Assembly (NCBI GenBank): GCA_001303705.1
Contig: LJUI01000004.1
Span: 14,495-78,494 of the forward strand
Origin: a candidate division TA06 bacterium SM23_40
GTDB lineage: Bacteria > LJUI01 > SM1-40
DNA length: 64,000 bases
Reading direction: 5' to 3'
Position 1 is the stretch's first letter, and each line of letters starts with the position of its first letter. The notes below the pieces were generated by a model. It made no database searches. It saw nothing but the letters and a program-made list of their open reading frames with translations, and had not been told where the DNA came from. The position numbers and the translations under genes are program-made. Positions 10,217 through 27,831 of the stretch are shown here, piece by piece.

Positions 10217-12079
10217 GTGACTCGACCCACAACACCATCGAGTTCATCCGCCTCTTCGGGCGGCTCGCGTGAGCAAGCGAGAGAGAGACTGGCGGCCTTC
10301 TCCGAGTTCGCGGGTACAGGGCTTGACTCTGTCGTGAGCGACCTCGCCCGACTGGAGAAGACGTGGAACAGGATCCGGTCACGACTCGTCGCCGGGGAGC
10401 GCGACTCGGCGAGCGCGGAGCTCGAGAGCGCGATCGAGCGGCTCGCGAACCGGGCTGTCCAGATGCGGCGGGAGTTCGATGTGGTGAGCGCCGGTCTGTC
10501 GTTGGCGGTGGACGACCTGACCGACGAGGCAAGGCAGAGCGAGCGGATGCGCCAGCGCCTGGAGACGCTGCATCGGGTCGGCAAACTCGTCCATTCGGAG
10601 ACAGATCTTGATCGGCTCATCGACCTGGCAATCGATGCGGTCCTTGAGGTGACGGGAGCAGAGCGAGGGTTTCTCGTCCTGGTGGAGAACGATCGCCTTG
10701 TCACGAAGGCAGTGCGCAACATCCAGACCGAGGCGCGGGGAGGCGAGGATACAGCTCTCAGTCAGACCGTGGTGCAGAGTGTTGTGGACGGCCGCGCTCC
10801 CCTGTTGATCCGCGATGCGGCAGAGGATGAACGGTTCAGGAAGATCGGCAGTGTTATCGACCTCCGCCTCCGTTCTGTGCTGTGCGTTCCTCTGCTGCTC
10901 GATGATGAGGTCACGGGCGCGATCTATATCGATAACCGGACCGCAGGCGGCATCTTCTCCGCAGATGACCTCGATCTCATGAAGAGGTTTGCTGAGTTCA
11001 TCGCCATCGCGATCCGGAATGCCTCGATGGTGCAGGGTCTCGAGCGCTCGCAGGAGGCGCTTCTGCGTGAGTTGCGAGCGACCCATCGATTCGAAGATGT
11101 GATCGGCACAAGCCGGGGCATAATCGAGGTCCTCGATCTCGTGAGCAAGGTGGCAGACAGCGATGTTTCGATCCTCCTCCTGGGTGAGAGCGGGACCGGC
11201 AAAGAGCTGATCGCCAGGGCGGTCCATGCGAACAGTGGGCGCAGCAGCCTGCCGTTTGTCTGCATCAACTGCGCGGCCATCCCCGAGCACCTTCTCGAGG
11301 CCGAGCTCTTCGGCCACGAAAGGGGGGCGTTCACGGGAGCTGTCAGGTCCCGGCGGGGCAAGTTCGAGACAGCCGATCGCGGAACGATCTTCCTCGATGA
11401 GATTGCGGATATGAGCCCTTCACTACAGGCGAAGTTGCTGCGTGTTCTCCAGGATGGCCGATTCGAGCCCCTGGGCAGCAATGAAGTTCGTGAGGTAGAC
11501 GTGAGGGTGATCGCGGCCACTAACCGGGATCTCGAACGTCTCGTCGCCGAGGGAACATTCCGGGAGGATCTGTACTACCGGCTCAACGTGGTCGAGGTAA
11601 GGCTGCCTCCGCTCCGCGAACGCAAGGAGGATGTTCCACTCCTGGTCGATCATCTATTGCACCAATTGAGAGCCAAAACAGGCAAATCTATAGAGTCTGT
11701 CGATGATGCAGCGCTCCGCGCACTTGTGGCCTACGACTATCCCGGCAACGTGCGCGAACTGGAGAACATCGTCAAGCGTGCCGCGGTACTGGCAAAGGGT
11801 CCGACGATCATTGTTGCAGATCTGCCCGAGAAGATGCGGAGCTCCGCCGGGGCGGGACCGGGCGCGCCTCCCGCCAACCGGAGTGAGCTGCGCCGGGCAA
11901 GGGAGGAGGCGCGGAAGGTTGCCGTCGCCGAGGTCGAACGGTCCTTCGCCATGGAGGCGATGCGGCGGAACAAGGGGAACGTGGCGCGGGCAGCGGCCGC
12001 GGTCGGGATGGATCGGAGACAGTTCTACCGTCTGCTGAATAAGCACGGCATCTCGAAGTCAATGTTCGGCGAGGGGTGA
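10217..12079 (+). CDS. Sigma54-dependent transcriptional activator (coiled-coil N-terminus, GAF domain, AAA+ sigma54-interaction domain, Fis-type HTH); no receiver domain. Probable start is GTG 10217 with RBS GGGAGG; the ORF track starts at 10118.
   Basis: GESGTGKELIARAVH Walker A. GAFTGA-like ERGAFTGA. FLDEIADM. C-terminal HTH NKGNVARAAAAVGMDRRQFYRLL. GAF-like region upstream. Confidence 0.85.
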   Translation: MTRPTTPSSSSASSGGSREQARERLAAFSEFAGTGLDSVVSDLARLEKTWNRIRSRLVAGERDSASAELESAIERLANRAVQMRREFDVVSAGLSLAVDDLTDEARQSERMRQRLETLHRVGKLVHSETDLDRLIDLAIDAVLEVTGAERGFLVLVENDRLVTKAVRNIQTEARGGEDTALSQTVVQSVVDGRAPLLIRDAAEDERFRKIGSVIDLRLRSVLCVPLLLDDEVTGAIYIDNRTAGGIFSADDLDLMKRFAEFIAIAIRNASMVQGLERSQEALLRELRATHRFEDVIGTSRGIIEVLDLVSKVADSDVSILLLGESGTGKELIARAVHANSGRSSLPFVCINCAAIPEHLLEAELFGHERGAFTGAVRSRRGKFETADRGTIFLDEIADMSPSLQAKLLRVLQDGRFEPLGSNEVREVDVRVIAATNRDLERLVAEGTFREDLYYRLNVVEVRLPPLRERKEDVPLLVDHLLHQLRAKTGKSIESVDDAALRALVAYDYPGNVRELENIVKRAAVLAKGPTIIVADLPEKMRSSAGAGPGAPPANRSELRRAREEARKVAVAEVERSFAMEAMRRNKGNVARAAAAVGMDRRQFYRLLNKHGISKSMFGEG

Positions 12080-12127: not shown

Positions 12128-15100
12128 ATGCGTGAGGTGGCCGATAGTGAATGGCTGGGCGATCGGTATGAAGTCCTCGGGCGGATTGGTTCCGGCGGCA
12201 CGGGTGTGGTCTATCGGGCTCGGGACTGCCGGGAGGAGCGCGAGGTCGCCATCAAGGTCTTCTCCACCGCTTTGTCGCCCGCCAGAGCTACTGCGCTCCT
12301 GAGGGAAGAATTCGAGACGCTCTGTCGTCTTTCCCATCCGAACATCGTGCGGATGTTCGCTCTCGGCGAGGACAGGAGAGGTCCCTTCTTGGTGGTGGAG
12401 CTTGTCCCCGGAGATGATCTCTCGCAGCACATGAAGGCGGGGCTCAACTGGGCTTCCGCGCCGGAGAGGGTCGCGGAGATCGCCGGGCAGATCTGTGGGG
12501 CTCTGGACTACATACACTCCCGCGATGTCGCCCACCTTGACCTCAAACCCTCGAATGTCCTCCTCGATCGGTCTGGTACGGTGCGAGTCACTGACTTCGG
12601 GCTCGCAGTGAGAGTCAGCGAACTCGCCGGCGCAGGCCCCCGCGCGCAGGTATCAGGTACCCTTGAATATATAGCTCCGGAACAGCTCCTGGGCCGGCCG
12701 CCCGACTTCCGGAGCGATTTCTTCAGTCTCGGGCTTCTCCTGTACGAACTCGTGACAGGCCAGCTTCCCTTCGCTCCCGAGCCGGCCGGGGTGGTCATGG
12801 CCGAGAACCCCGGGGCACATCCGGCACGCCCTCATCGGCTCGTCTCCAACCTGCCTCCCGCGCTCGAAACAGTAATGCTCCGTCTGCTGAGACGGGAGCC
12901 GGAGGACCGTGTGCAGAGCGCGCTCGAGGTTCTCGACATACTCCGGAGGACAGCACCTATGAAGGCTCCGCCGGCCGGGGCGCCGGAGGCGCTGCAGGCG
13001 CGGGGGCTGGTTGCGGGAGCATTGGTCGGCCGGGAGGAGGAGGTACGGGTACTCGATCGATGTCTCGCCGATGCGGTGCGGGGAATGGGACAGGCAGTAC
13101 AGATCAGCGGCCTCCCCGGGGTCGGGAAGACGAGGCTTGTGAGGGAACTCGTTGGCCTTGCCGGAACAAGAGGGATGGGCAGGTTCGAGATCAGATGCCA
13201 TGAGGCGGGCTCTCCTCCCCTGGAGCCAGTCGCTGAACTCATCCGCCGGATGCTGGGCTGGCTTGAGCAGAGCTCCCGGGAGACTGTCTCCCGTCATCTC
13301 GGTGAACAGAAGGGATTATTGCTCTCTCTCGTTCCGGAATTCATCGATCGCGAGTACATGGCAGGCGAATCTGTCGCCGGGCGTCTGGCAGGCGCAGCGG
13401 AGCAGCAGGCACTGTTCGACGCAGTGATCGGATTCCTCGTCAGCACTTCTCAGGAGTGCCCTCTGCTCTTGGTCTTTGAAGACCTCCGGTGGGCGGATTC
13501 TGCCACGCGCCAGTTCCTGCGGCGTCTCGCTGATGCGATCTCCGACGCACATATCCTGGCTGTGGTGACTATCCGTTCGGGCGAGACTCCGGAGGCCGGC
13601 GAGGGACGGTTGCCCCCATCGATACTCCATCTGGAGCTGACTCCTCTCGCCCCGGAACAGTCGAAGGCGCTGGTGGGATCGCTCCTTGCGTCCGGTCAGG
13701 TCCCCCGAGTGCTTGGTGAATGGATTGATGAGAAGGAGCCGGGGAATCCTCTCTATCTCCAGGAGGTGGTGCGCTCCCTGGCCGAGGAGGGACGGCTCCA
13801 GCGTCGGCGGTCTCGATGGCTGTACGTCGGAGAACCGGCACATCTAGATGCGGTGCCTGATGGAGCGGCCGAGGTTATCGGACTCCGCTCGCTCCGTCTG
13901 AGAAGAGAGGCGAGGGAAGTGCTTGACTGGGCGGCAGTGGCGGGGGAGGAGTTCAGGCGCGAAATTATCGAAGGGGTCTGTTCGGGAGGCCGGGCCGGCC
14001 TCTCGGAGGCGCTCGAGGAGCTTGAGGATCGTCAATTGATTCAGGAGGAGTACGGATCCGGCGGGCGGCGGTACCTCTTTTCGCACAGCCTGGTGCGCGA
14101 AGTCACCTATGATCAGATCCCGGTGAGGCGGAGGCGTCGCCTCCACGTGGCGATGGGCGACGCGCTCGAGCGCCAGGCAGGCGGTGAGGTCGAGCCGGAG
14201 GCAGATAGACTGGCCTATCACTTCTACCTCGGCCAGAACTGGCACAAGGCTGCCACCTATGCCGAGGCCGCGGCCGCGCGTGCAACCTCTCTCTACTGTC
14301 TCGATGACGGCCTGCGATATCTCGACTGGTCTCTCGATGCCCTCGGCCGCCTGGGCGAGACGGACGAGACATTGGAAGGAAAAGCTCGAAACTGGCGGTT
14401 GAAGGGCGAACTGCTGCGGCGCTCAGGCGATTTCAGGGCGGCTGCCGGGGCACACGAGGAAGGCCTCAACTGGGCGCGCAGGGCTGAATCGGACGAGGAG
14501 ATCACCCGGAACCTTAACAATTTCGGCCTGTGCCAGTGGCACCTCGGTGCGTTCTCTGATGCCCTTGCTGCGTTTACGGAAGCGACTGTCGTTGCCGAGC
14601 GGCTCGGCGAACGAGAGTTGCAGGGGCAGTTGCTGAACAGCATCGGGCTCGTCCATTGGTCCCTCTCGGAGTTCGAGCAGGCGCTCGCGCACTTCCAGCG
14701 GGCGCTCGATCTCGCGCTCGCGATACAGGATTCAAGGGGCCAGGGGATCCTGTTGGCGAATATGGGCCTTGTTTGTGCAGCCCTCGGTCGATACGAGGAG
14801 GCCATCGACCTCACGCTCAAGGGGCTTGAGATATGGAAGGCGAGGGGCGACCGTCAGGAAGAGGCGATCGCGCTCGGGAATCTTGCGACGTTTTATGTGC
14901 GGCTCGCCCGATATGATGAGGCGAGAGAGGCGACACTCTCGGCACTCGAGACCAGGAGGGAGATCGGCGATCGGTGGGGCGAGGCAGTGAGCATAGCGAA
15001 CCTGGGACAGATTCTATATCATCTCGGCCGCCCCGAGGAGGCGGCGAGCCATCTGAGGAGGGCGGTCGCAGGCCTGCGCGATCTGGGCGATAAGAGGAGC

Positions 15101-15730
15101 GAGGCCGGCAATCTCATCAATCTTGCGAACGCCCTGATTGAGATGGGTGAGAGAGCGAAGGCGAAAGAGTGCGTTGACCAGGCCATGGCAGCTGCCGCCC
15201 AACTCGAGGACCGGTCGGCTCAGGCATTTGCGCACGCTACCGCGGGCCGATGGCACCGGCTCGCGGGGGAGATCGATAAGGCGGTCGCGGAACACCGCGC
15301 TCTCCTCGGGCTGGCGGGCGAGATCGGCGAGCCGTCGATCGAGGTCGAGGGCCGGCTGGAGCTGGCGAAGGATTTCGCTGCTCAGGGCGATCTCGAGGCG
15401 TCGAGGAAGGAGGCGGAGGCGGCCGCCCGCGCGGCGCGCTCCATGGGGATGGCTCATGAGCTGTGGCAGGCCCTGGCGCTGTTGGCGCGGGTGAGGCGGG
15501 AGACGCGTGAGGAGGTAGAGGCGGTTGACGTCTTTCTGGATGCGCTGATGGTGCTCGATCGAATCCTGGGCGGCCTGCACGAGGCGCGGGATCGGGCGAG
15601 CTACGCCGGATGGACCGGCGTCCGGGGGGTGCTCGACGAGGCAAAGGAGATCGGGACCACGGTCCGCTCCTCGCGCGCTCGGGAGCTCGTGCATGCTGCA
15701 GAGCGCCTGCTCTCGGTGATCCAGGCATGA
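12128..15730 (+). CDS. Multidomain Ser/Thr protein kinase fused to a STAND/AAA ATPase and TPR repeats (PknK-like architecture)
   Basis: Kinase motifs LGRIGSGGTGVVYRARD, AIK, HLDLKPSNVLL, DFGLA, APE. P-loop ISGLPGVGKTRLVREL. Multiple TPR-like repeats with NLG/NIG...A...A periodicity in the C-terminal half. Confidence 0.8.
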   Translation: MREVADSEWLGDRYEVLGRIGSGGTGVVYRARDCREEREVAIKVFSTALSPARATALLREEFETLCRLSHPNIVRMFALGEDRRGPFLVVELVPGDDLSQHMKAGLNWASAPERVAEIAGQICGALDYIHSRDVAHLDLKPSNVLLDRSGTVRVTDFGLAVRVSELAGAGPRAQVSGTLEYIAPEQLLGRPPDFRSDFFSLGLLLYELVTGQLPFAPEPAGVVMAENPGAHPARPHRLVSNLPPALETVMLRLLRREPEDRVQSALEVLDILRRTAPMKAPPAGAPEALQARGLVAGALVGREEEVRVLDRCLADAVRGMGQAVQISGLPGVGKTRLVRELVGLAGTRGMGRFEIRCHEAGSPPLEPVAELIRRMLGWLEQSSRETVSRHLGEQKGLLLSLVPEFIDREYMAGESVAGRLAGAAEQQALFDAVIGFLVSTSQECPLLLVFEDLRWADSATRQFLRRLADAISDAHILAVVTIRSGETPEAGEGRLPPSILHLELTPLAPEQSKALVGSLLASGQVPRVLGEWIDEKEPGNPLYLQEVVRSLAEEGRLQRRRSRWLYVGEPAHLDAVPDGAAEVIGLRSLRLRREAREVLDWAAVAGEEFRREIIEGVCSGGRAGLSEALEELEDRQLIQEEYGSGGRRYLFSHSLVREVTYDQIPVRRRRRLHVAMGDALERQAGGEVEPEADRLAYHFYLGQNWHKAATYAEAAAARATSLYCLDDGLRYLDWSLDALGRLGETDETLEGKARNWRLKGELLRRSGDFRAAAGAHEEGLNWARRAESDEEITRNLNNFGLCQWHLGAFSDALAAFTEATVVAERLGERELQGQLLNSIGLVHWSLSEFEQALAHFQRALDLALAIQDSRGQGILLANMGLVCAALGRYEEAIDLTLKGLEIWKARGDRQEEAIALGNLATFYVRLARYDEAREATLSALETRREIGDRWGEAVSIANLGQILYHLGRPEEAASHLRRAVAGLRDLGDKRSEAGNLINLANALIEMGERAKAKECVDQAMAAAAQLEDRSAQAFAHATAGRWHRLAGEIDKAVAEHRALLGLAGEIGEPSIEVEGRLELAKDFAAQGDLEASRKEAEAAARAARSMGMAHELWQALALLARVRRETREEVEAVDVFLDALMVLDRILGGLHEARDRASYAGWTGVRGVLDEAKEIGTTVRSSRARELVHAAERLLSVIQA

Positions 15731-15817: not shown

Positions 15818-15846
15818 TTGACTTTTCCGGGCACCTGTAATAGGTT
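15818..15846 (+). promoter_or_regulatory. Promoter-like motif TTGACT-N17-TAGGTT (copy 1) ~110 nt upstream of the first gene of the glycosylation cluster
   Basis: Exact hexamers and spacing read from the sequence, followed by GCAAGGG. The same architecture recurs at 21227-21255. Confidence 0.35.
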
Positions 15847-15954
15847 TTGCAAGGGAACGCCTCAAGAGTTCCGGGAGCCCCGTGGGCTTCCTTTTCACTA
15901 TCTGCTGTGGCAGATCTTGTGTTGAGTCGAGGCGGGAGTAACGAGGAGGCGTCT

Positions 15955-16908
15955 ATGCGAGTCCTGGTCACGGGAATCACCGGTTTTGCCGGCAGCCACC
16001 TGGTGGATTATCTATTGACTCTGCCCGATGTACAGGTCTTCGGGATCAAGCGCTGGCGCAGTCGCACAGAAAATATCAAGCACTTCGAGCAGAAAATCGC
16101 AATCTACGAATGTGATCTGAGGGATGCATCTTCGGTGCGCGATATGATCGAGGTGGTGCTGCCGGATCGCATCTTCCATCTCGCGGCACAGAGCTTCGTG
16201 CCGACCTCGTGGAGCGCTCCCACAGAGTCGCTTGTGACCAACGTGATCGGCCAGCTCAACATTTTCGAGGCTGTGCGCCGCATCGGACTGGAGCCCCGCA
16301 TCCAGCTAGCGTGTTCCAGCGAGGAGTATGGGCTTGTCAGTGAGGATGAGATACCTATCAAGGAGACGAACGCGCTGCGTCCCCTCAGCCCCTACGGGGT
16401 AAGCAAGATCGGCCAGGACATGCTGGGGTACCAGTATGCGAGGAGCTACGGGATGTTCATCGTGAGGACGAGAGGGTTCAATCATACTGGGTGTCGGCGT
16501 GGTCCTGTCTTTGTCTGCTCGGATTTCGCCAAACAGGTCGCTGAGATCGAGAAAGGCAGACGGGATCCCGTGATATGGGTCGGGAATCTCGATGCGATCC
16601 GTGACTTTACGGATGTCCGGGACATAGTGCGGGGCTACTGGCTCGCACTCGAGCATTGCGATCCTGGAGATGTGTACAACATCTGTTCCGGTGTGGGACG
16701 CAAGATCCGCGATGTGCTCGACATGCTGATCGGGATGACGTCGAAGTCAGTGGAAGTGAAGGTTGACGAGTGCAGGCTTCGGCCCTCAGATGTGCCCGTT
16801 CTGATCGGAGATAACACCAAATTCAGAGAGAAGACTGGCTGGGAGTTGACGATACCGTTCGAGATCACGCTGAAGGAGATTTACGAGTACTGGCTCGAGC
16901 GTGTGTGA
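15955..16908 (+). CDS. NAD-dependent sugar epimerase/dehydratase, SDR family (GDP-/UDP-sugar 4,6-dehydratase or 4-reductase-like). Start ATG 15955 with RBS AGGAGG.
   Basis: Rossmann motif VLVTGITGFAGSHLVDYL. Catalytic YxxxK PYGVSKIGQD. Confidence 0.8.
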   Translation: MRVLVTGITGFAGSHLVDYLLTLPDVQVFGIKRWRSRTENIKHFEQKIAIYECDLRDASSVRDMIEVVLPDRIFHLAAQSFVPTSWSAPTESLVTNVIGQLNIFEAVRRIGLEPRIQLACSSEEYGLVSEDEIPIKETNALRPLSPYGVSKIGQDMLGYQYARSYGMFIVRTRGFNHTGCRRGPVFVCSDFAKQVAEIEKGRRDPVIWVGNLDAIRDFTDVRDIVRGYWLALEHCDPGDVYNICSGVGRKIRDVLDMLIGMTSKSVEVKVDECRLRPSDVPVLIGDNTKFREKTGWELTIPFEITLKEIYEYWLERV

Positions 16909-16966
16909 TGAAAGACCGCGCCGTCTGGACGCTGTGATGACGTGGGGCGGCTGCCGAGCGAGGACA

Positions 16967-17926
16967 ATGGTTCAAGTACTGGTCACAGGAGCCGAGGGAT
17001 TCGTCGGCGGACATCTTGTACCTCTGCTGCTAGCGCGTGAGAGGCGAGTGAGCGGCACCGCGCTGGACGAGAGGGATGTGGAGAGGATCGAGCGTTTCGA
17101 TGGGGCTCGGGGCGTGGCCTGCGATATCACCGAGAGGGAGGGGATCGCCGGCCTCGTAGAGCGCCTCCTTCCCCGGGAGATCTACCATCTGGCGGCGCAG
17201 AGTTCGTCGGCGTTCTCTTTCTCCGACCCGTATGGCACGATTGCGGACAATGTGATCGGATGTCTGAACGTGCTCGATGCCGCCAGGCAGGCTGCCCAGA
17301 CTGCGCGCGTCCTTATCGTCAGTACGGGAGAGATCTACGGCGTCGGGTCAGAGAACCCGCTTACTGAAGAGGCGCCTGTCGGCCCGATGACTCCTTACGC
17401 GGCGTCGAAGGTGTCGATGGAGCTCGTTGCTCGTCAGTACTGGAAAAGCCTGGGGCTTCCGGTGGTGATCGTCCGCCCCTTTAACCATACAGGGCCTGGT
17501 CAAAGTCCTCGGTTCGCCCTCTCGAGCTTTGCCAAACAGGTCGCCGAGGCGGAACTAGGGCTGAGCTCACCACTGATAGAGGTAGGGAATCTGGACGTAC
17601 GTCGTGACTTCCTCGATGTGAGAGATGTCGTGCGGGGTTACTTGCTCGCTCTCACCGAGGGTGCTCCTGGCGAGATCTACAACATCTCCTCTGGCATTGC
17701 GTCATCGCTTCGCGATGTTCTCGATCTGCTCCTGGAATCGGCGAATGTCTCGATCAAGGTCGAGATCGGCAACGATCGTCTGAGAAAGGTCGACATACCC
17801 GTGCTGTGCGGCGACAGCTCGAAATTCAGAGCTCGCACGGGTTGGAGTCCTCGCTACGAACTCAGGCAGACGCTGCACGATCTTCTGGACTACTGGCGTC
17901 ATGAGCTTCAAGATTCTGGTCGTTAA
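16967..17926 (+). CDS. Second NAD-dependent sugar epimerase/dehydratase, SDR family (Rmd/GDP-4-keto-6-deoxyhexose reductase-like)
   Basis: VLVTGAEGFVGGHLVPLL. YxxxK PYAASKVSMEL. Paralogous to the preceding gene. Confidence 0.8.
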   Translation: MVQVLVTGAEGFVGGHLVPLLLARERRVSGTALDERDVERIERFDGARGVACDITEREGIAGLVERLLPREIYHLAAQSSSAFSFSDPYGTIADNVIGCLNVLDAARQAAQTARVLIVSTGEIYGVGSENPLTEEAPVGPMTPYAASKVSMELVARQYWKSLGLPVVIVRPFNHTGPGQSPRFALSSFAKQVAEAELGLSSPLIEVGNLDVRRDFLDVRDVVRGYLLALTEGAPGEIYNISSGIASSLRDVLDLLLESANVSIKVEIGNDRLRKVDIPVLCGDSSKFRARTGWSPRYELRQTLHDLLDYWRHELQDSGR

Positions 17927-19064
17927 CTGGCAGGACAGAACGAACCCGCTGGCAGGTGGGGCGGAAATACATCTGCACGAGATCTTCGGGCGCCTGGCGA
18001 TGCAGGGTGATGAGGTCTGGCTTCTCTGTTCCTCCTATCCCGGCGCAGCTCCGGTCGAGTATGTCGACGGTATTCGTGTGGTGAGAAGGGGAGGACGGTT
18101 CACGTTCAATATCAGCGCCTTTCTCGCATATTATCGGGAGTTGGCGCACGAACAATTCGACGTTGTCGTCGAAGATATGAACAAGATTCCGTTCTACACT
18201 CCTCTCTATGTGCATGGTCCGGTCCTCGCGATGGTACCGCATCTATTCGGAACGACAGTCTTCCAGGAGGCGATCGTTCCTCTGGCGGTCTATGTCTATC
18301 TCTGGGAGCTGCCGATTCCGCTGATCTATCGCCGCGTGAGGTTTGAGGTCATTTCCGAGAGCACCAAGGAGGATCTCGTTGCCCGCGGGATTCGGTCCGA
18401 TCTGATCCATGTCGTTCACTGCGGGATCGATCGCATGGTTTATCATCCCGGGGGTTCAAGAGACGAAGATCCGCTTATCGTCTATCTGGGCAGGTTCAAG
18501 AAGTACAAGCGCGTAGACCTCCTGCTCAGCGCCATGGTGAAGGTGAAGGAGCGAGTGCCACGCGTGAAGCTTCTCCTGGTCGGCGGTGGAGACCATCTGG
18601 GTGCGCTGAGGGAGCTTGTGGAGCGGCTCGGACTCTCTGACACTGCGTCGTTCACCGGGCACGTGGACGAACAGGAAAAGGTGGGCCATCTCCGTCGCGC
18701 ACACCTCGTGGTCAACACCTCTCCGAAGGAGGGCTGGGGGCTTACCGGCGTCGAGGCGAATGCCTGCGGTACACCTGTGGTTGCATCCGACTCGCCCGGT
18801 CTGCGCGACTCGATCGCCGATGGCAAGAGCGGCCTCCTCGTGCCTCACGGCGACGTGGGTGCGCTCGTCGAGGCCATAGTCCGCATGCTCACAGATGAAG
18901 AACTCAACTGGAGACTGTCGCGGGGAGCGGTCGATTGGGCAGCCAGGTTCAGCTGGGATGCTGCAGCGGAGAGGACCAGACAGCTAATCGAAGAGGTCGT
19001 AGGTAGCGAGAGAGGTTCGGGTCCTCGGGGCCCGGCCGGCAAAACGCCAGGAGCGAGTGTGTGA
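17901..19064 (+). CDS. Glycosyltransferase family 4 (GT-B, retaining)
   Basis: GT4 fold signatures. C-terminal EGWGLTGVEANACGTPVVASDSPGLRD (E-x7-E-like motif). Confidence 0.8.
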   Translation: MSFKILVVNWQDRTNPLAGGAEIHLHEIFGRLAMQGDEVWLLCSSYPGAAPVEYVDGIRVVRRGGRFTFNISAFLAYYRELAHEQFDVVVEDMNKIPFYTPLYVHGPVLAMVPHLFGTTVFQEAIVPLAVYVYLWELPIPLIYRRVRFEVISESTKEDLVARGIRSDLIHVVHCGIDRMVYHPGGSRDEDPLIVYLGRFKKYKRVDLLLSAMVKVKERVPRVKLLLVGGGDHLGALRELVERLGLSDTASFTGHVDEQEKVGHLRRAHLVVNTSPKEGWGLTGVEANACGTPVVASDSPGLRDSIADGKSGLLVPHGDVGALVEAIVRMLTDEELNWRLSRGAVDWAARFSWDAAAERTRQLIEEVVGSERGSGPRGPAGKTPGASV

Positions 19065-20038
19065 GAAAATGGCTCTGGCTCTTCGTCAGGCTCATCGTCA
19101 GTGCGGGTCTGCTCGCCTTTCTGCTGAGCCGTATTGATCTCGCTCGGCTCGTCGAGCTCGTGCGCGGGGCCGATGTCCGCTTTCTTGCCTTACCGTTTAT
19201 ATCGCTCGTTGGGTTCATCATCATCGCTGCTTTTCGCTGGCGGATACTCCTCCGCTCCCTGGAGAAGCGTGTCGTGATGAGGCGGCTCGTCGCGTACTAT
19301 TTTGTCGGCCTCTTCTTCAACAATTTCTTCCCCACCACAGTGGGAGGAGACGCACTGCGGGGGTACTATCTCTCTCGCGAGGGTTCGGCCAAATCCGAGG
19401 CGTTCGCGTCAGTCTTTGTGGAGCGGCTTTCCGGCATTGCCGCGCTGCTGATTCTTGCTCTGGTCGCCTCGGCTCTGATCTATGCGAGCATGGGAGATAG
19501 AACGATCATCCTCTGGGTTTCCCTGGGGTTCGCCATCGCTGGAACGCTGACGCTCCTTCTCTTCAGCGTGTCTGTGGGGGCGGCTATTGAGCGCGGTCTA
19601 GCCCGGGTCACTATTTTCGGATCGGGAGCCAAGCTGACGAGGTTTCTCCGGGCATTGCGGTTCTATCGCGGCCAGAAGAGGGCGGTCGTTGCTGCAGTCG
19701 TCATCTCCTGCATCATTCAGTCGATCCACATCTACGCCAACTATCTCGTGGGGAGGGCCCTGGGTCTGGAGGTCCCACCACAGTACTACTTCCTATTCGT
19801 GCCCATCATCACCGTAGCGGCCATGTTGCCGCTAACGATAAATGGGGTGGGTATCAGAGAAAACGCGTTTGTCTTGCTCTTCGGCCGCGTCGGGATGGGG
19901 GCGGCCGAGGCGACGTCAGTGTCGTTGCTCATATTCGGAACGTGGGTCGTCGTGAGCCTCATTGGCGGCGTGATCTTCCTTTTCGGCCCAGCGACCTGGA
20001 GGGTTGCTCCCGAACCCGGGACACCCCAGCGGCCGTAG
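19061..20038 (+). CDS. Flippase-like polytopic membrane protein of the lysyl-PG-synthase-TM / UPF0104 family (paralog 1). GTGA overlap with the upstream GT4.
   Basis: About 8 predicted TM helices. Motif FFNNFFPTTVGGDALRGYYL typical of the LPG_synthase_TM (MprF flippase domain-like) family. Confidence 0.6.
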   Translation: MRKWLWLFVRLIVSAGLLAFLLSRIDLARLVELVRGADVRFLALPFISLVGFIIIAAFRWRILLRSLEKRVVMRRLVAYYFVGLFFNNFFPTTVGGDALRGYYLSREGSAKSEAFASVFVERLSGIAALLILALVASALIYASMGDRTIILWVSLGFAIAGTLTLLLFSVSVGAAIERGLARVTIFGSGAKLTRFLRALRFYRGQKRAVVAAVVISCIIQSIHIYANYLVGRALGLEVPPQYYFLFVPIITVAAMLPLTINGVGIRENAFVLLFGRVGMGAAEATSVSLLIFGTWVVVSLIGGVIFLFGPATWRVAPEPGTPQRP

Positions 20039-20059
20039 GAGCGATCGGAGAGGGCAGTC

Positions 20060-21016
20060 GTGTCCGCAAGGGGAAATCGGGCGATGGAACAGAATGTCGA
20101 TCGGGTATCGATAATAGTGCCGGCGCTCAATGAAGAGGAGAATGTGCCGGTCGTGGTACAGCGGATCTCCGAGATGATCGAGGAGAGTGGCCTCGACTGT
20201 GAGGCGATTTTGGTCGATGACGGCAGCACCGATGGCACGTATCAGGCTGGATTGCAGGCGCGGGAGCGTTATCCCTTCCTCAAGGTGGTCCGTCATCGGC
20301 GGAACCGCGGTAAGACTGCCGCCCTTCTCACCGGGGCGGAGGAGGGTACAGGCGGGGTGCTCGTGCTGCTTGACGCCGATATGCAGTTCGATCCGGCAGA
20401 GGTGCCGAAGCTCGTAGCAGGGATCGAACAGGGCGCGGATCTCGTCTCCGGCCGGAAGGTGGGCAAGTACGAGAAACGTTTCGTATCGTGGATATACAAT
20501 TTCCTATGTCGACGGCTGTTTCACGTGACGGTGCACGATCTGAACGCGGTCAAGGCATTCAGGCGAGAGGTTCTTGAGGCCCTCGATCTCAGAAAGGACT
20601 GGCATCGGTACCTGGTGGTACTCGCTGCAGAGAAAGGATTCACGATCGCCGAGGAGGAGGTGCAGCTCTATCCTCGTCTGCACGGCGAGACCAAGTACGG
20701 CGGCGTCGGGCGCATCGCAGTCGGTGTGCTCGATCTGATTGCAGTCAAGTTTCAGCTCTCCTTTATGCGCAAGCCGATGCTTCTGTTCGGCGGAACAGGA
20801 GCGTTCCTGCTCTTCTGCGGGATGATCGTCGGCTTCATCTCGCTGTACCTCCGTTTTGTGATGGAGATGGGCTTCCGGCCTCTGTTGTATCTCGTTATTT
20901 TGCTCGTCACCTCCGGGCTCCTGCTCTTCGCGCTGGGATTTCTGGCTGAGGCGATCGCGAACGTCCAGGAGAGGCTGGAGGGAGTTGAGCGGGCGGCGAA
21001 GAAGAGACACCTCTAG
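20060..21016 (+). CDS. GT2 glycosyltransferase, polyprenol-phosphate sugar synthase-like (DPM1/GtrB/ArnC-like) with a C-terminal TM anchor
   Basis: VSIIVPALNEEENV...ILVDDGSTDGT...DADMQ (DxD). Two C-terminal TM helices as in GtrB/ArnC. Alternative start ATG 20084. Confidence 0.8.
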   Translation: MSARGNRAMEQNVDRVSIIVPALNEEENVPVVVQRISEMIEESGLDCEAILVDDGSTDGTYQAGLQARERYPFLKVVRHRRNRGKTAALLTGAEEGTGGVLVLLDADMQFDPAEVPKLVAGIEQGADLVSGRKVGKYEKRFVSWIYNFLCRRLFHVTVHDLNAVKAFRREVLEALDLRKDWHRYLVVLAAEKGFTIAEEEVQLYPRLHGETKYGGVGRIAVGVLDLIAVKFQLSFMRKPMLLFGGTGAFLLFCGMIVGFISLYLRFVMEMGFRPLLYLVILLVTSGLLLFALGFLAEAIANVQERLEGVERAAKKRHL

Positions 21017-21226
21017 CCGCCCGGAGCCGCCAGAGACAGTAATCGTGCTCGGAGCGGGCTCCCGCCCCACAGTCTTCCCTAGAGTATGAATCCCCCTTCA
21101 CAGGCGGACCGATGCCCGATTCACCAGGGCTGCCCCCTGGCGATGCCCCGATCGACCCGTGGTACGGCCGAGGTCTGGGGAGGAATGAACGACGCCCTAT
21201 CTACCCCAGCGGAATGGGTTTTTCCC

Positions 21227-21255
21227 TTGACTTCCCTAGAGATATGGCATAGGTT
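21227..21255 (+). promoter_or_regulatory. Promoter-like motif TTGACT-N17-TAGGTT (copy 2) ~150 nt upstream of ugd
   Basis: Identical hexamers and spacer length to 15818-15846, followed by GGCAAG. Confidence 0.35.
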
Positions 21256-21406: not shown

Positions 21407-22705
21407 ATGAAGGTCGGAATCATCGGTTCAGGATATGTCGGATTGGTGACCGGCGCGTGTTTCGCTGAAATGGGAAACGATGTCATCTGCGTCGACAATG
21501 ACGAGGCGAAGATCGACATGCTGAAGCGCGGCGAGATGCCGATCTATGAGCCTGGACTCGGCGATCTGGTAGCCCGCAACACAGCAGACGGCAGGCTCGC
21601 GTTCACAACGTCGATAGAGGAGGCAGTTGACGCGTGCATGGTGCTCTTCATCGCCGTTGGCACACCATCAAAGGATGATGGCGAGGCAGATCTTTCTGCC
21701 GTCGAGGCAGTGTCCCGCAAGATCGCGGAGTGCATGAAGGAGTACCGTCTGGTCGTTGAGAAGAGTACGGTGCCGGTGCAGACCGGCGCCTGGATCAGGC
21801 GAACGCTCGAACGGTACAACCCGGACGGGGCTGAGTTCGACGTGGCGTCGAACCCGGAGTTCCTCCGAGAAGGATCGGCGATCGGAGACTTCATGCATCC
21901 GGACCGTGTTGTCATCGGGGTAGAATCGGAACAGGCTCGTACGATATTGCTCGATCTCTATGCGCCCCTCGAGTGTCTCATCGTGGTCACAGATATCGAG
22001 AGCGCCGAGATGATCAAGCACGCGAGTAATTCGTTTCTTGCCATGAAAATATCATTCGTGAATGCAGTGGCTAATATCTGTGAGAGGGCAGGGGCAGATG
22101 TCACTCAGGTTGCCGCTGGGATGGGATATGACCATCGCATCGGCAAGGAATTTCTGCGCGCCGGTGTTGGCTTCGGCGGTATCTGTTTTCCCAAGGACCT
22201 CCAGGCGTTTCGCAAGATAGCTGAGAGTTTCGGATATGATTTCGGGCTGCTCAAAGAGGTTGAGAAGATCAACGAAGAGATGAAGCGGCTGGCGGTGGAG
22301 AAGGTGCGAGAGGCGCTCTGGGTATTGAAGGGAAAGACGGTGGGGGTGCTGTGGCTGTCGTTCAAGCCGAATACCGATGACATGAGGCGGGCGCCTGCCG
22401 TCGACATCATCAATTATCTCCTGGAGGAGGAGGCCACTGTACGGGTGTATGATCCCGTGGCGATGGATAGGGCGAAGACGATACTCAGTGATGTTACGTT
22501 CTGCAAAGATCCGTATGAGGTCTGCGCCGGCAGCGACGCGCTTCTCATTGTGACGGAGTGGGAGGAGTTTGCGAACCTCGATTACGCTCACGTGGCGAAG
22601 CTCATGCTTACCCCGATCCTGATAGACGGCAGGAATATGCTCGACCCCGACAACATGCGGGAACTCGGCTTCGTCTATCGGGGGATTGGCCGTGCGACTC
22701 GATGA
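21407..22705 (+). CDS. ugd: UDP-glucose 6-dehydrogenase
   Basis: MKVGIIGSGYVGLVTGACFAEMGNDVICVD at the N-terminus. Catalytic Cys region GFGGICFPKD. Length 432 aa. Confidence 0.9.
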   Translation: MKVGIIGSGYVGLVTGACFAEMGNDVICVDNDEAKIDMLKRGEMPIYEPGLGDLVARNTADGRLAFTTSIEEAVDACMVLFIAVGTPSKDDGEADLSAVEAVSRKIAECMKEYRLVVEKSTVPVQTGAWIRRTLERYNPDGAEFDVASNPEFLREGSAIGDFMHPDRVVIGVESEQARTILLDLYAPLECLIVVTDIESAEMIKHASNSFLAMKISFVNAVANICERAGADVTQVAAGMGYDHRIGKEFLRAGVGFGGICFPKDLQAFRKIAESFGYDFGLLKEVEKINEEMKRLAVEKVREALWVLKGKTVGVLWLSFKPNTDDMRRAPAVDIINYLLEEEATVRVYDPVAMDRAKTILSDVTFCKDPYEVCAGSDALLIVTEWEEFANLDYAHVAKLMLTPILIDGRNMLDPDNMRELGFVYRGIGRATR

Positions 22706-22780: not shown

Positions 22781-24655
22781 ATGGGCCGGCGCAGGAAACG
22801 TGCAGCAGAAGAATCGAAGACGAAAGGCAACAGTAGATCCAGGAAGAAGCAGCGCCCTGCGGTCGGGGCCGCCCCTCAGCGAAGGGCTACCGATGCGGGA
22901 GGGAAGGTGCAGGGTGATACTGCTTCCGAGACGGCTGCTGCCAGAGTCGCTCCGGAAGAAGGGCATCGGGACGAACGCGAAGAGAGAGCGGTCTCTCTCG
23001 ATGAGAGGGCCGAATCTGGGTACGAGAGCAGGCTGTGGCTCACGTCGGCGGCCAGGAAGGCACCTCTCATCACACTCGTGGTGATCCTGCTCCTTGCAGG
23101 CCTCTTCGGCGCTCTCCTCTTCGATCCGAAGCCGAGTGTCGGCGGCGACAATGCCCATTATCTTCTCCTGGCGAAAGCCCTGGCTACCGGTAGAGGCTAT
23201 CGATCGATCGAATCGCCGGGAGACCCACCTCATACCCATTTCCCATTCGGCTACCCCATGCTGTTGACCCCGCTCGTTCGTCTCATTCCGGGGAGCATTC
23301 TCCCGCCGAAGATGTTGTCCCTGGTGCTGTTCGTAGGGTCGCTTCTTCTCCTGTACCCACTCCTGACGCCGCGGATCGGATATGGCCTCACTCTGAGCGT
23401 ACTTGCCTTGCTCGCCATCAGCCCCATTATGCTCGAATTCTCGCACTGGGCCCTGTCGGAAATCCCCTTTCTCTTCTTCACGATTCTGTCGATGATACTC
23501 TTCAGCGCTGCAGAGAGGGGGGGGAGAAGGTCGTGGTGGTGGTTTGCCTTGGGATCACTGTGTCTGGTGTGGACATTCTACATCAGAACAGTCGGCATTG
23601 CTCTGGTGATCGCGGTGCTAGTCCGTCTCGCGTGGAGACGGTCGTTCAAGAGGGCTGCGCTGCTTCTGATCATAGTGGTCTTGCTGGCAGCACCCTGGAT
23701 GATCCGCAACGCGATACTGCCATCGGATGTAGGTGATCCGGCGACCGCGAGCTACATCTCTCAGGCGATGATGGTGAGCGCGTTCGATCCGGAGGCGGGA
23801 ACACTTACGGCACGTGAGTACCTGGTGCGGGTGTTCCGCATCGTCAGCGCCTACTGCAATCGTGTACTGCCCAAAGTCATCCTGCCGCCTCTCTGGGCGA
23901 GCGAATCGCTCTTTGAGCTCCCTCAGATCGCAAAAGCATTCGTATGGCCCCTCATCCTGGGCCTCACACTGTTGGGACTGTTCCTGCAGCTGAGGAGAAG
24001 GCCCGCTCTGTTCGACATCTATGTCATTGCTTACCTCCTGGTTCTCTGGGGGTGGGCGAACAAGAATATAGCCGCGGGGCCACGGTATCTGTTGCCCGTG
24101 CTCCCGTTCCTCTTTGTCTACTTTCTCGAGGGATGTGACCGGGTACTCAAATGGTCGGTTCCTCAGCGAAGCACACTGCTTCCCCTCGTCCTCGTTTGTG
24201 TTCTTCTAGTAACAGGTACTTGGGTTCTTCTTCCTCCCGTGTCATCGAACCTTGCCGACCTATCGGCGTATATAGCCGGTGATCCCTTTGCCGGATATTC
24301 CGACTCATGGGCCAATTTCTTCTCAGTAGCGCTCTTTGCCTACGACAAGATACCTCGTGATGCCATCATCATGACGCGCAAGCCCGCACTCTTCTATCTC
24401 TACTCGCATCGGAAATCGGTGATCTATCCCTATACTCGGGATGAAGAGAAACTATATGAGGCGTTAGCCGAAAACAACGTTGACTTCGTCCTGGTGGATG
24501 CGTTCCGCTGGACGAAGACGACACAGAGGTACCTCATCCCTGCCATACTGGCAAGGGTCGATCGGTTCAGAGTCATCTGCGTTACGATCCCGCCGAAGAC
24601 CTATCTGCTCCAGGTACTTGGTGATCCACGAGAGTGGTCAGGAGGAGAAGAGTGA
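22781..24655 (+). CDS. GT-C fold membrane glycosyltransferase (PMT/ArnT/GT39-83-like) with an unusual ~100-aa Lys/Arg-rich N-terminal extension
   Basis: Multi-TM N-terminal half, GDNAHYLLLAKALATGRGY loop motif, large C-terminal soluble domain. Basic N-terminus MGRRRKRAAEESKTKGNSRSRKKQRP. Confidence 0.6.
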   Translation: MGRRRKRAAEESKTKGNSRSRKKQRPAVGAAPQRRATDAGGKVQGDTASETAAARVAPEEGHRDEREERAVSLDERAESGYESRLWLTSAARKAPLITLVVILLLAGLFGALLFDPKPSVGGDNAHYLLLAKALATGRGYRSIESPGDPPHTHFPFGYPMLLTPLVRLIPGSILPPKMLSLVLFVGSLLLLYPLLTPRIGYGLTLSVLALLAISPIMLEFSHWALSEIPFLFFTILSMILFSAAERGGRRSWWWFALGSLCLVWTFYIRTVGIALVIAVLVRLAWRRSFKRAALLLIIVVLLAAPWMIRNAILPSDVGDPATASYISQAMMVSAFDPEAGTLTAREYLVRVFRIVSAYCNRVLPKVILPPLWASESLFELPQIAKAFVWPLILGLTLLGLFLQLRRRPALFDIYVIAYLLVLWGWANKNIAAGPRYLLPVLPFLFVYFLEGCDRVLKWSVPQRSTLLPLVLVCVLLVTGTWVLLPPVSSNLADLSAYIAGDPFAGYSDSWANFFSVALFAYDKIPRDAIIMTRKPALFYLYSHRKSVIYPYTRDEEKLYEALAENNVDFVLVDAFRWTKTTQRYLIPAILARVDRFRVICVTIPPKTYLLQVLGDPREWSGGEE

Positions 24656-25548
24656 GAGAGTCCACTGGGACTAGTGGAGAGAGAAAGCCACTCGTGAGCG
24701 TCGTCATCCCGGCGTTCAACGAGGAAGAAGCCATCGCCGATGAACTGAGAGAGATTACGACGGTGATGGACCGATCGGAATATCAGTATGAATTGATCGT
24801 GATCGATGATGGTTCGACAGACCGCACCGGCGAGATCGCGAAGGCCTCCGGCGCTACGGTGATCCGGCATCCGGTTAATAAGGGCAGCGGTGCATCTCGC
24901 CGTACGGGGATTCATAACTCGCAGGGAGAGATTATCGTGATGGCCGATGCTGACGGCACGTACCCCTGCTATCAGATTCCCGAACTTCTCAAGTGGCTCC
25001 CGGAGTACGACCAGGTGGTGGGGGCGAGACACACGGAAGAGGGCACGTTGAAGCTATTGCGAATGCCGACCAAGTGGTTCATTCGCCACCTGGCCTGCTT
25101 TTTGAGCGGGAAAGAGATACCCGACCTCAATTCGGGGTTGCGAGCTTTCAAGCGTGATGTGATGCTCAAGTTCGTCGACTTCATACCGGACGGATTCTCC
25201 TGCGTTACGACTATGACCCTTTCTTTCTTGACAAACGGGTATACCATCAAGTACGTGCCGATCGAATACTTTCGACGGGTGGGAAAGTCGAAGTTCCATC
25301 CCGTTCGAGATACCTACAATTATATGCTGCTCGTAGTGCGCATGATCATGTACTACAATCCGCTTAAAATCTTTGTTCCCGTCGGGATGGCGATCTTGGT
25401 TGCCGGTCTCGCCAAGGCAGTGCGCGATATGATTGTCTACTACTTCAAGGTGACAGGGTCTGCGATCGTGGCGATCAGTGTTGGCGTCCAGATCATCGTG
25501 GTCGGCCTTCTGGCCGATCTGATTGTGAAGCGGGTCGGGAAGACGTAA
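24652..25548 (+). CDS. GT2 polyprenol-phosphate glycosyltransferase-like (GtrB/ArnC/CsbB-like) with C-terminal TM helices. GTG start with RBS AGGAGG, GTGA overlap.
   Basis: VSVVIPAFNEEEAI...LIVIDDGSTDRT...DADGT (DxD). Two C-terminal TM helices. Confidence 0.8.
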   Translation: MRESTGTSGERKPLVSVVIPAFNEEEAIADELREITTVMDRSEYQYELIVIDDGSTDRTGEIAKASGATVIRHPVNKGSGASRRTGIHNSQGEIIVMADADGTYPCYQIPELLKWLPEYDQVVGARHTEEGTLKLLRMPTKWFIRHLACFLSGKEIPDLNSGLRAFKRDVMLKFVDFIPDGFSCVTTMTLSFLTNGYTIKYVPIEYFRRVGKSKFHPVRDTYNYMLLVVRMIMYYNPLKIFVPVGMAILVAGLAKAVRDMIVYYFKVTGSAIVAISVGVQIIVVGLLADLIVKRVGKT

Positions 25549-25599
25549 TTGCTCCGAGCGGAAACCGGATTTCGAGCGGCTCTGTCTACCTGAGAGCGG

Positions 25600-26625
25600 A
25601 TGACAACCGGAGAGCTTGTGGTGGAGGCCGATATAGTACCAACGAAGGGGTATCGCGGGCTTCGGCATCGTCTAGTGATCTTCGCCTCGGCCCTGGTTGG
25701 TGTCGGCCTGATTGTTGTGCTGTTGTCCTTCATCGATCCGAGAACGATCATAATGCTCTGCTCGCAGCTCGACCCACGCTGGGGGCTCGCGGGCGCGCTA
25801 TGCTACGGTGCGACCTATCTCTTCCGTGCTGCTCGTTTTCAGGTTCTGCTTGCGGAACGTCGCACCGCGATCGGGCGTATGTATTCGGTAGCCTGCGTCC
25901 ACGGGATGCTCAATCACCTCTTGCCGATGCGGTTCGGGGAGGTCTCGTATCTCTATCTCGTGAGGAGAGCCTTCGGCGTGAGTCTAGGAGAGGCGGCTGT
26001 TTCCCTCCTGGTGGCACGGCTGTTCGATTACATGGTCGTATCGACCATCTTCATGATCGCCGCCGTGCGGGTTCTCCCCGAACTTCCCGGTGGCGTGGGC
26101 TGGTACCTGGTAGGTGCCGCAGCACTCGCGGCTCTCGCAGTGCTGGGGCTGATCCTGGCCGTGCGCTTGAGCCACCGGCTACAGACGTGGGGAGCGAGAA
26201 TCAGGCAGGAGAGGCGTCGTGGCGTTCTGAGCTGGGTCGGTCAGAAGCTCGACGAGGTCGCGAGGGCATTTGACTCCGCCTCGCGTGCCCGGGTCTACAT
26301 GCGGGTGCTAGGACTGTCAGTACTCGTCTGGGGCGGCGTCTTTGGCACGTTCTACTGCCTGTTGCGTGGGTTGGGATTTGGTGTGAGCCCGTGGCTCGCG
26401 ATCGTCGGAGGAACCTTTGCCGTCCTTACAAGCGTGCTTCCGTTGAGTGGTGTCGGGAGCTTCGGCACACTGGAGGCCGGCTGGACCGCTGGTTTTCTGT
26501 TGATCGGATTTGAGAGAGAGCAGGCGATCGCGAGCGGGTTTGCGGTGCATCTCCTCTTGTTCGCAATGGTTATTCTTCTCGGCCTTGTTGGTGCGGCTGC
26601 GATTGCCGTGGGTCGAAAACGATGA
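25600..26625 (+). CDS. Flippase-like membrane protein, LPG-synthase-TM/UPF0104 family (paralog 2)
   Basis: Polytopic membrane protein with the family-typical N-terminal IDP...G..Y..R..R segment. Confidence 0.6.
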   Translation: MTTGELVVEADIVPTKGYRGLRHRLVIFASALVGVGLIVVLLSFIDPRTIIMLCSQLDPRWGLAGALCYGATYLFRAARFQVLLAERRTAIGRMYSVACVHGMLNHLLPMRFGEVSYLYLVRRAFGVSLGEAAVSLLVARLFDYMVVSTIFMIAAVRVLPELPGGVGWYLVGAAALAALAVLGLILAVRLSHRLQTWGARIRQERRRGVLSWVGQKLDEVARAFDSASRARVYMRVLGLSVLVWGGVFGTFYCLLRGLGFGVSPWLAIVGGTFAVLTSVLPLSGVGSFGTLEAGWTAGFLLIGFEREQAIASGFAVHLLLFAMVILLGLVGAAAIAVGRKR

Positions 26626-27827: not shown

Positions 27828-27831
27828 AATA

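Follow-up and report, generated by a model that had tools for sequence, protein, structure and literature searches.

Identical promoter-like elements in a glycosylation cluster of a TA06 bacterium probably belong to the general promoter type of their host

The closest described counterparts of the promoters discussed here are those of E. coli sigma70 and B. subtilis SigA, which take the form TTGACA-N17-TATAAT. The elements in the window, i.e., the whole 64-kb stretch of DNA that was analysed (GC content ~60%), resemble them in the -35 (5/6 positions), in the 17-nt spacer, and in the T-12, A-11, and T-7 of the -10. They are likewise intergenic with leaders of 50–160 nt, and the helices with which the window's own sigma factor would read DNA are the same as well. 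The Gram-positive-style extended -10 (TRTGn) is also represented, namely as TGTGn in the promoters of a cold-shock (csp) gene and a Kelch-repeat gene. What sets the promoters of the window apart is the middle of the -10, which is G/C-rich (TAGGTT matches TATAAT at only 3/6 positions), as well as a spacer that seems unusually strict, with 17 nt in 7/7 promoters.

Other systems share less with these elements. ECF sigma promoters, which can serve the dedicated control of envelope or polysaccharide genes, carry a -35 with a GGAAC/AAC core and a -10 with a CGT core, and they usually come with an adjacent sigma/anti-sigma pair. They are alike in fronting envelope-glycosylation genes, but TTGACT is devoid of the GGAAC/AAC core and TAGGTT of the CGT core, and the window proteins that were scanned included no Sigma70_r2/r4-only (ECF-type) protein and no anti-sigma factor. 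With sigma54 (-24/-12) promoters only the neighborhood is shared, in the form of an activator gene, as neither intergenic region holds GG-N10-GC at the right spacing.

A parallel for the -10 is offered by actinobacteria. The mapped -10 of the Mycobacterium smegmatis housekeeping sigma factor is TANNNT (PMC6448022), and in Streptomyces avermitilis a TANNNT -10 is combined with a BTGACN -35 (PMC8780764). The promoters of Mycobacterium SigA and Streptomyces HrdB are like ours, with a -10 set by the T, the A, and the final T and an nTGACn -35 (PMC6448022; PMC8780764). However, the -35 of actinobacteria is variable or weak and many of their transcripts are leaderless, whereas TTGAC is invariant here (7/7) and the leaders are long. 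Furthermore, the host belongs to candidate phylum TA06, which is unrelated to actinobacteria. An earlier, sequence-only reading of the locus had called TAGGTT a poor sigma70 -10. That judgment needs correcting, as the hexamer retains T-12, A-11, and T-7, the three -10 positions that matter, and TANNNT is usual in GC-rich bacteria; in a GC-rich genome, a G/C-rich -10 such as TAGGTT is no evidence for a special sigma factor.

The two elements and the genes behind them

The window contains exactly two copies of TTGACT-N17-TAGGTT, as had been noticed before, versus 0.01 expected from dinucleotide shuffles (at least two copies in 0/100 shuffles). Promoter P1 spans positions 15818-15846 of the forward strand, with the -35 TTGACT at 15818-15823, a 17-nt spacer, and the -10 TAGGTT at 15841-15846. 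Promoter P2 spans 21227-21255, also on the forward strand, with TTGACT at 21227-21232, a 17-nt spacer, and TAGGTT at 21250-21255. Both match the pattern exactly, and both are intergenic and oriented toward a gene at 5'-UTR distance. Their -35 corresponds to 5/6 of TTGACA, and a TG at -15/-14 is absent from both. Assuming that transcription starts ~7 nt past the -10, the leaders would measure ~102 nt from P1 to the SDR gene and ~145 nt from P2 to ugd, in line with the 100–150 nt given previously. The start codons downstream of P1 and P2 carry GGAGG/GAGGTG ribosome-binding sites.

The gene identities on the 3' side are both borne out by Pfam. The first gene after P1 (15955-16908, forward strand) encodes an NAD-dependent epimerase/dehydratase, i.e., a GDP-mannose-dehydratase-like SDR (PF16363, E = 4e-80), and the first gene after P2 (21407-22705, forward strand) encodes a member of the UDP-glucose/GDP-mannose dehydrogenase family (ugd; PF03721, PF00984, and PF03720). 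P1 heads a unit of five genes at 15955-21016, in the order SDR1, SDR2, GT4, LPG_synthase_TM, and GT2. P2 sits ~210 nt past the last gene of that unit and heads ugd (from 21407) followed by contiguous glycosyltransferase genes up to ~36240; the cluster contains paralogous GT4, LPG_synthase_TM, and GT2 modules. Upstream of P1 lie a sigma54 activator with GAF-AAA+-HTH_8 architecture (10118-12079, ~4 kb off) and a Ser/Thr kinase-AAA16-TPR protein (12128-15730).

The proposal that the elements head two sections of the glycosylation cluster has gained in strength. Considering their intergenic position, their orientation, and the fact that a relative keeps them in place with the same spacing and key bases (see below), P1 and P2 are very probably genuine, evolutionarily conserved promoters. 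The cluster would then consist of two transcription units, one at 15955-21016 and one from 21407 to ~36240, a division that helps its annotation and heterologous expression.

A promoter class across the window and its probable reader

P1 and P2 are not isolated. Relaxing the degenerate bases to TTGACn-N17-TAnnnT yields seven matches in the 64-kb window versus 0.45 expected. TTGACn and TAnnnT with a 16- or 18-nt spacer do not occur in the window, and the other spacers of 13–21 nt occur zero to one time each. Six of the seven members lie wholly within the intergenic ~9% of the window and the remaining one overlaps a stop codon by 4 nt. When intergenic DNA alone is shuffled, 0.04 members are expected, which corresponds to a ~150-fold enrichment there. 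All seven face a gene 50–160 nt downstream, and the functions of these genes are unrelated.

Besides P1 and P2, the class comprises five members. TTGACG-N17-TATCCT at 6428-6456 (forward strand) precedes a Yip1-family gene (6569) and HlyD/MacB genes, and the same hexamers recur at 63540-63568 (forward strand), upstream of a gene starting at ~63730. TTGACA-N17-TACCTT at 46181-46209 (forward strand), which has A-tracts on its 5' side and a TGTGn preceding the -10, fronts the cold-shock (CSD) gene at 46268-46468. Two members lie on the reverse strand, namely TTGACA-N17-TATTCT at 54841-54869, upstream of a short-chain dehydrogenase gene (53958-54698), and TTGACC-N17-TAGGGT at 56286-56314, which follows a T-tract, carries TGTGa ahead of the -10, and precedes the Kelch-repeat gene (ORF end 54987). 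Variants with one mismatch are found at chance level (20 in the window versus 16 expected), and only the two intergenic ones were retained, as candidates. The sequence was also extended 2 kb past one window end in search of further promoters.

The window also encodes a suitable reader. Following dnaG (2594-4405), rpoD (4402-6144, forward strand) codes for a primary (group 1) sigma factor with Pfam sigma70 regions 1.1, 1.2, 2, 3, and 4. Over regions 2–4 it can be aligned gap-free to its counterparts in B. subtilis (SigA) and E. coli (sigma70). Compared with SigA, the helix of region 2.4 shows no difference and that of region 4.2 a single conservative exchange (I to V); the E. coli helices are nearly the same as well. 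P1 and P2 are most likely read by this RpoD. The earlier idea of a dedicated sigma factor or regulator finds no support here, as the same class fronts unrelated genes and the RpoD of the window has canonical recognition helices.

Owing to the window-wide class, the 17-nt spacer, the canonical RpoD, and the conservation in a relative, we consider it likely that P1 and P2 are two independent, ordinary housekeeping promoters read by the group-1 RpoD holoenzyme. Region 4.2 of the sigma factor would read TTGAC(n), and the optimal 17-nt spacer would set region 2 onto TAnnnT, with A-11 and T-7 as the bases captured upon melting and little weight on the middle GGT. P1 would then initiate the five-gene unit (two SDRs, GT4, an LPG_synthase_TM-type membrane protein, and GT2), and P2 would act as a second promoter, initiating ugd and the long glycosyltransferase run up to ~36240. 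The transcription start sites, the sigma factor used, and the promoter strength at P1 and P2 are what we infer from the DNA. Judged from sequence, both elements appear to belong to the general housekeeping promoter type of the host and not to a dedicated regulatory system. They open no new biological question. They do offer a small, clean view of how promoters are built in a candidate phylum without a cultured member, consisting of TTGAC, a strict 17-nt spacer, and TAnnnT, at times with TGTGn or A/T tracts.

The hexamer identity of P1 and P2 would, on the RpoD reading, amount to agreement at just four weakly constrained positions within a tightly constrained class and not to a special shared motif. 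Among the seven promoters there are two identical pairs, P1 with P2 and 6428 with 63540. If the four positions were free, ~0.09 such pairs would be expected (P ~0.004, our own estimate), suggesting some unexplained preference at these degenerate positions.

Comparison with a relative and the rival readings

Protein searches with the kinase and SDR1 returned one true relative (L090), the only one found, in which nine genes are syntenic at 63–89% amino acid identity. At homologous places, P1 corresponds to TTGACT-N17-TAGCTT (4276-4304 of the relative's locus) and P2 to TTGACA-N17-TAGGTT (9652-9680), and these two are the only exact class matches in its 14-kb locus. Each promoter keeps 11/12 hexamer bases and the 17-nt spacing. 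The bases that changed are the sixth of the -35 and the fourth of the -10, both of which the sigma70 consensus leaves degenerate. Retained are TTGAC, the 17-nt spacing, and TA...T, amid intergenic DNA around P1 and P2 that fails to align between the two species. The exact repeat had been taken to suggest a shared site for a dedicated sigma factor or regulator, a view that finds no support here: the counterparts in the relative differ from each other, which means that exact identity is not selected, and the class is window-wide. The GCAAG described a few bases behind each -10 is indeed there, 2 nt after it at P1 (15849-15853) and 4 nt after it at P2 (21260-21264), but it is not conserved in the relative and is therefore rejected as a functional box.

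Other sequences added little to this comparison. A second contig carrying the relative's SDR1 has identical intergenic regions, and six near-identical contigs of the host's own population differ by one SNP in the leader, which makes them uninformative. A contig search with the GT4 protein matched only Ignavibacteria (49% identity), and a metagenome search with SDR1 gave 80 loci of unrelated organisms (GC 30–65%) that show neither the synteny nor the motif.

With an activator and a kinase gene directly upstream, in a layout that is the same in the relative, and with GGCAC and TTGCA strings occurring in P1, the elements might be read as sigma54-dependent promoters or as targets of the activator and kinase pair, a link also drawn in the sequence-only reading. 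The pair does lie upstream, but the link to the elements is unsupported for want of a -24/-12 element. TTGAC and TAnnnT set 17 nt apart make up a layout of the sigma70 and not of the sigma54 type, GG and GC in P1 are separated by 19 nt where 12 are required (i.e., 7 nt too far), and GGCAC is missing from the P1 of the relative. A scan for TGGCACG-N4-TTGCW with at most three mismatches, which gave 64 matches in the window versus 77 expected and none in either intergenic region, rules out a sigma54 promoter, so that we give this reading as a whole next to no credence. The identical hexamers and spacer length, in a cluster that holds paralogous modules, could also point to a promoter segment that was duplicated and relocated inside the cluster, with P1 and P2 as its copies. 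Anchored on the hexamers, however, P1 and P2 agree at 18/62 positions outside the 12 hexamer bases, which is the level of unrelated promoter pairs from the window (12–25/66) and falls short of orthologous pairs (32–37/66). The leaders are unrelated, and SDR and Ugd, encoded behind them, do not form a paralogous pair; on the agreement of the flanks, we reject a duplication as very improbable. There is just as little room for chance matches without promoter function. Consensus scans do give many false positives, and a strict sigma70 consensus scan of the 12–30 kb section found nothing above background, although it requires at least 4/6 in the -10 and passes over promoters of the P1/P2 type by design. 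Against chance stand the expectation of the exact pattern, the intergenic enrichment of the class, and the conservation of place and sequence in the ortholog amid non-aligning intergenic DNA.

A further reading, which we deem unlikely, holds that P1, P2, and perhaps the Kelch promoter (56286-56314) form a co-regulated sub-class with a dedicated sigma70-family factor or a flank-binding regulator, recognizable by shared bases in and around the hexamers (GGnTTTT upstream of the -35, T-17/G-16, and TAGGkT). The P1 and P2 hexamers agree at all four degenerate positions. A GG followed by a T-tract lies just upstream of the -35 in P1, P2, the Kelch promoter, and both promoters of the relative and in 0/4 TAyyyT promoters, the third -10 position is a G in all five, and the synteny of sigma54 activator, kinase, and cluster shared with the relative may be counted in its favor as well. 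Nonetheless, the core architecture is the same before the cold-shock, Yip1, and dehydrogenase genes, the counterparts of P1 and P2 in the relative are unlike each other, and the flanks of P1 and P2 beyond the hexamers resemble each other no more than those of unrelated promoters. Of the window proteins that were scanned, none was an additional sigma or anti-sigma factor, and the sample consists of only 7 to 9 promoters. A T- or A-tract upstream of the -35, moreover, has the look of an ordinary UP-like element. The T-tract together with a TAGGkT -10 is a weak residual pattern beside the preferred reading of ordinary RpoD promoters and may hint at a sub-class. Taken further, TA06 would possess two flavors of TTGACn-N17 promoters, one with GGnTTTT and a purine-rich TAGGkT (P1, P2, and the Kelch gene) for a cell-envelope glycosylation regulon, read by a second, RpoD-like (group 2) sigma factor or boosted by a factor that binds the T-tract, and one with a pyrimidine-rich TAyyyT, a scheme that strikes us as rather improbable.

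The hairpin in the P1 leader

Beyond the promoter itself, the leader of P1 contains a terminator-like hairpin with a U-tract (15873-15895, forward strand; GGGAGCCC-CGT-GGGCTTCC followed by TTTT), ~20 nt past the predicted start. The idea that the leaders contain an RNA of a described family was dropped, given that an Rfam search gave no match even at E <= 5 and the folds are not significantly stable (whole-leader z-scores of -0.85 and -1.05 in the two species). No alternative pairing conserved between the P1 leaders of both species was found, and the two near-identical stems preclude covariation. The hairpin itself has an 8-bp stem with six G-C pairs, runs into TTTTCA, and is the best terminator-like match in the 12–30 kb section. 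It occurs as a single copy in the window and is not part of P2. Folding predicts it in both species, and its sequence is kept in the relative except for a change in the loop. We suggest that it may serve as an attenuator or operator. If the sub-class discussed above were true, then together with this conserved hairpin it would place the glycosylation cluster under control at two levels.

Two promoter-like elements and their conservation

The pattern TTGACT-N17-TAGGTT matches the window exactly twice, on the + strand in both cases, at 15818-15846 (P1) and 21227-21255 (P2), and nowhere else, whereas only 0.01 matches are expected from shuffles; the sequence description in the sequence-only reading is thus borne out. 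P1 precedes a GDP-mannose-dehydratase-like SDR gene (SDR1, 15955-16908) and P2 a UDP-glucose dehydrogenase-family gene (ugd, 21407-22705). Upstream of this glycosylation cluster lie the genes for a GAF-AAA+-HTH_8 sigma54 activator (10118-12079) and a Ser/Thr kinase-AAA16-TPR protein of 1200 aa (12128-15730), the latter being 100% identical to an NCBI protein of 'candidate division TA06 bacterium SM1_40'. The G+C content of the window is ~60%. Contigs identical to it stem from estuary-sediment metagenomes, and the organism is therefore uncultured.

The searched collections contained only one real relative, a 15.6-kb Logan contig (L090), in which the gene order is the same (activator, kinase, SDR1, SDR2, GT4, LPG_TM, GT2, Ugd, PMT-like, GT2, and LPG_TM) at protein identities of 63-89%. 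Its locus holds only two exact matches to the relaxed pattern TTGACn-N17-TAnnnT, one per long intergenic region and at homologous positions, namely TTGACT-N17-TAGCTT before SDR1 and TTGACA-N17-TAGGTT before ugd. When these intergenic regions are aligned with those of the window, the promoter blocks and ribosome-binding sites are conserved, as are the first ~55 nt of the P1 leader, and the remaining DNA does not align. Judged from this comparison, both elements appear to be under selection and hence to be real promoters, which supports the promoter reading given to them earlier. The two promoters of L090 differ from each other, with changes at the degenerate sixth base of the -35 and the fourth base of the -10, and the selected features would be TTGAC, the 17-nt spacing, and TA...T. 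GCAAG, which begins 2 nt (P1) and 4 nt (P2) past the -10 hexamer, is not a conserved box, since L090 has GCCATG and GCCAAAAG in its place.

A probable housekeeping promoter class across the window

The window encodes its own primary sigma factor, as rpoD (4402-6144; regions 1.1, 1.2, 2, 3, and 4) follows dnaG (2594-4405). Regions 2-4 align without gaps with both Bacillus subtilis SigA (E = 1e-111) and Escherichia coli sigma70 (E = 3e-105). Of the two DNA-reading helices, the one for the -10 is identical, and the one for the -35 departs from both references by a single conservative I-to-V change. RpoD-type recognition helices read TTGACA and the -10 positions T-12, A-11, and T-7, exactly the three that TAGGTT keeps. 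In mapped start sites of GC-rich bacteria the housekeeping -10 is TANNNT, both in Mycobacterium smegmatis (PMC6448022) and in Streptomyces avermitilis, where the -35 is BTGACN (PMC8780764). In a GC-rich genome of this kind, calling TAGGTT a poor sigma70 -10 is therefore unjustified.

With the pattern relaxed to the positions of greatest specificity for a sigma70-type holoenzyme (TTGACn-N17-TAnnnT), the window holds seven matches against 0.45 expected. No match has a 16- or 18-nt spacer, and over spacers of 13-21 nt the only other one is a coding match at 15 nt. Six of the seven lie fully inside the 5.6 kb of intergenic DNA (0.04 expected in an intergenic-only shuffle), the seventh overlaps the preceding stop codon by 4 nt, and all face a gene 50-160 nt downstream. 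Besides P1 and P2, these are TTGACG/TATCCT at 6428-6456 (+), before a Yip1-family gene followed by HlyD/MacB; TTGACA/TACCTT at 46181 (+), before a cold-shock CSD gene (46268-46468); TTGACA/TATTCT at 54869 (-), before a short-chain dehydrogenase gene; TTGACC/TAGGGT at 56286-56314 (-), before a Kelch-repeat gene; and TTGACG/TATCCT at 63540-63568 (+), before a gene starting near 63730. Since it is common to cold-shock, efflux, and dehydrogenase genes, this class is most likely of the housekeeping type and not dedicated to glycosylation, and the dedicated sigma factor or regulator proposed earlier finds no support. P1 and P2 add two members to a kind of element that is very well known, from a phylum that is not.

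Two intergenic candidates of the same layout have one mismatch: TTGACA-N17-CATAAT at 6175-6203 (+), directly after rpoD and ~20 nt before tRNA-Met (6224-6300), and TTGACA-N17-TACAAG at 56382-56410 (+), before a formyltransferase gene at 56440. The latter would stand back-to-back with the divergent Kelch promoter in the 157-nt intergenic region 56283-56439, and both carry TGTGn before the -10. The true Kelch start is probably farther downstream than that of the longest ORF, as its first 60 codons look non-coding. The small CSD gene was overlooked by the longest-ORF pass; its promoter is textbook strong (upstream A-tracts, TTGACA, 17 nt ending in TGTGg, and TACCTT), and tRNA-Gly (46766) and tRNA-Cys (46914) follow the gene.

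Duplication, sigma54, and a possible sub-class

We reject the reading of P1 and P2 as mutual copies. With the two anchored on the hexamers, only 18/62 of the remaining positions match, compared with 12-25/66 for unrelated pairs of promoters in the window and 32-37/66 for orthologous pairs. The suggested tie to the activator/kinase pair fares no better at the sequence level. The pair sits immediately before the glycosylation genes in L090 as well, the one relative identified (the kinase homologs next in rank reach only ~30% identity). Allowing up to three mismatches, TGGCACG-N4-TTGCW matched 64 times against 77 expected, never in either intergenic region, and the window yielded no sigma54 promoter. 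GGCAC and TTGCA strings do occur in P1, 7 nt too far apart for a sigma54 element, and GGCAC is absent from the L090 ortholog. Nothing in the sequence elements of P1 and P2 connects them to the pair.

The hexamers of 6428-6456 and 63540-63568 are likewise identical to each other, before unrelated genes. With the four degenerate positions unconstrained, we estimate ~0.09 identical pairs among seven promoters; the two seen (P roughly 0.004) exceed what free variation predicts. Two types of -10 hexamer can be told apart, TAGGkT (P1, P2, and Kelch) and TAyyyT (the other four), the L090 orthologs having TAGCTT and TAGGTT. A GG plus T-tract (GGnTTTT..C) abuts the -35 upstream in P1 (15805-15817), P2 (21213-21226), the Kelch promoter (56315-56327, -), and both orthologs (upstream of L090 4276 and 9652), and is absent from the four TAyyyT promoters. 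In this sample of 7-9 promoters, the pattern could reflect composition preferences combined with an ordinary UP-like element; a sub-class served by a separate factor is less likely. The GG plus T-tract itself may be UP-like or may be bound by a factor.

Leader hairpin and transcription units

Specific regulation of the cluster is hinted at by a single feature, at P1 only. About 20 nt into the predicted P1 transcript, in the leader of the first glycosylation unit, an 8-bp G+C-rich hairpin is followed by UUUUCA (15873-15895, +; GGGAGCCC-CGT-GGGCTTCC then TTTTCA). It occurs once in the window, has no Rfam match, and recurs in L090 (4331-4353) with one loop base changed. It may be a promoter-proximal terminator/attenuator or, at the DNA level, a palindromic operator.

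With no terminator-like site between the GT2 stop (21016) and P2, transcription from P2 probably supplements read-through from P1. The seeming gap of 649 nt (32063-32711) is occupied by a Dpm1-like GT2 gene read in a different frame (VVVPTYNE...VDDNSPDGT; ~32059-32775, +). This gene overlaps the YfhO-like stop at its start and the ORF called at 32712 at its end, and the P2 unit thus continues unbroken to ~36240.

Downstream of SDR1 and ugd the cluster holds GT2, GT4, GT-C-like (PMT-like and YfhO-like), LPG_synthase_TM-type, methyltransferase, radical-SAM, and WecA-like genes. Modules of GT4, an LPG_synthase_TM-type membrane protein, and GT2 are repeated in opposite orders (17901-21016 and 24634-29522), alongside a third LPG_synthase_TM gene and the PMT-like and YfhO-like GT-C genes. 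With this content, lipid-linked glycosylation of some component of the envelope is a better fit than a classic Wzx/Wzy polysaccharide locus. Between the genes for a Reg_prop-repeat protein and a DegT-type aminotransferase, ~690 nt (38499-39188) hold just short overlapping ORFs on both strands, without a convincing gene, and a weak class-like site, ATGTCA-N17-TACCCT, lies inside this stretch at 38781.
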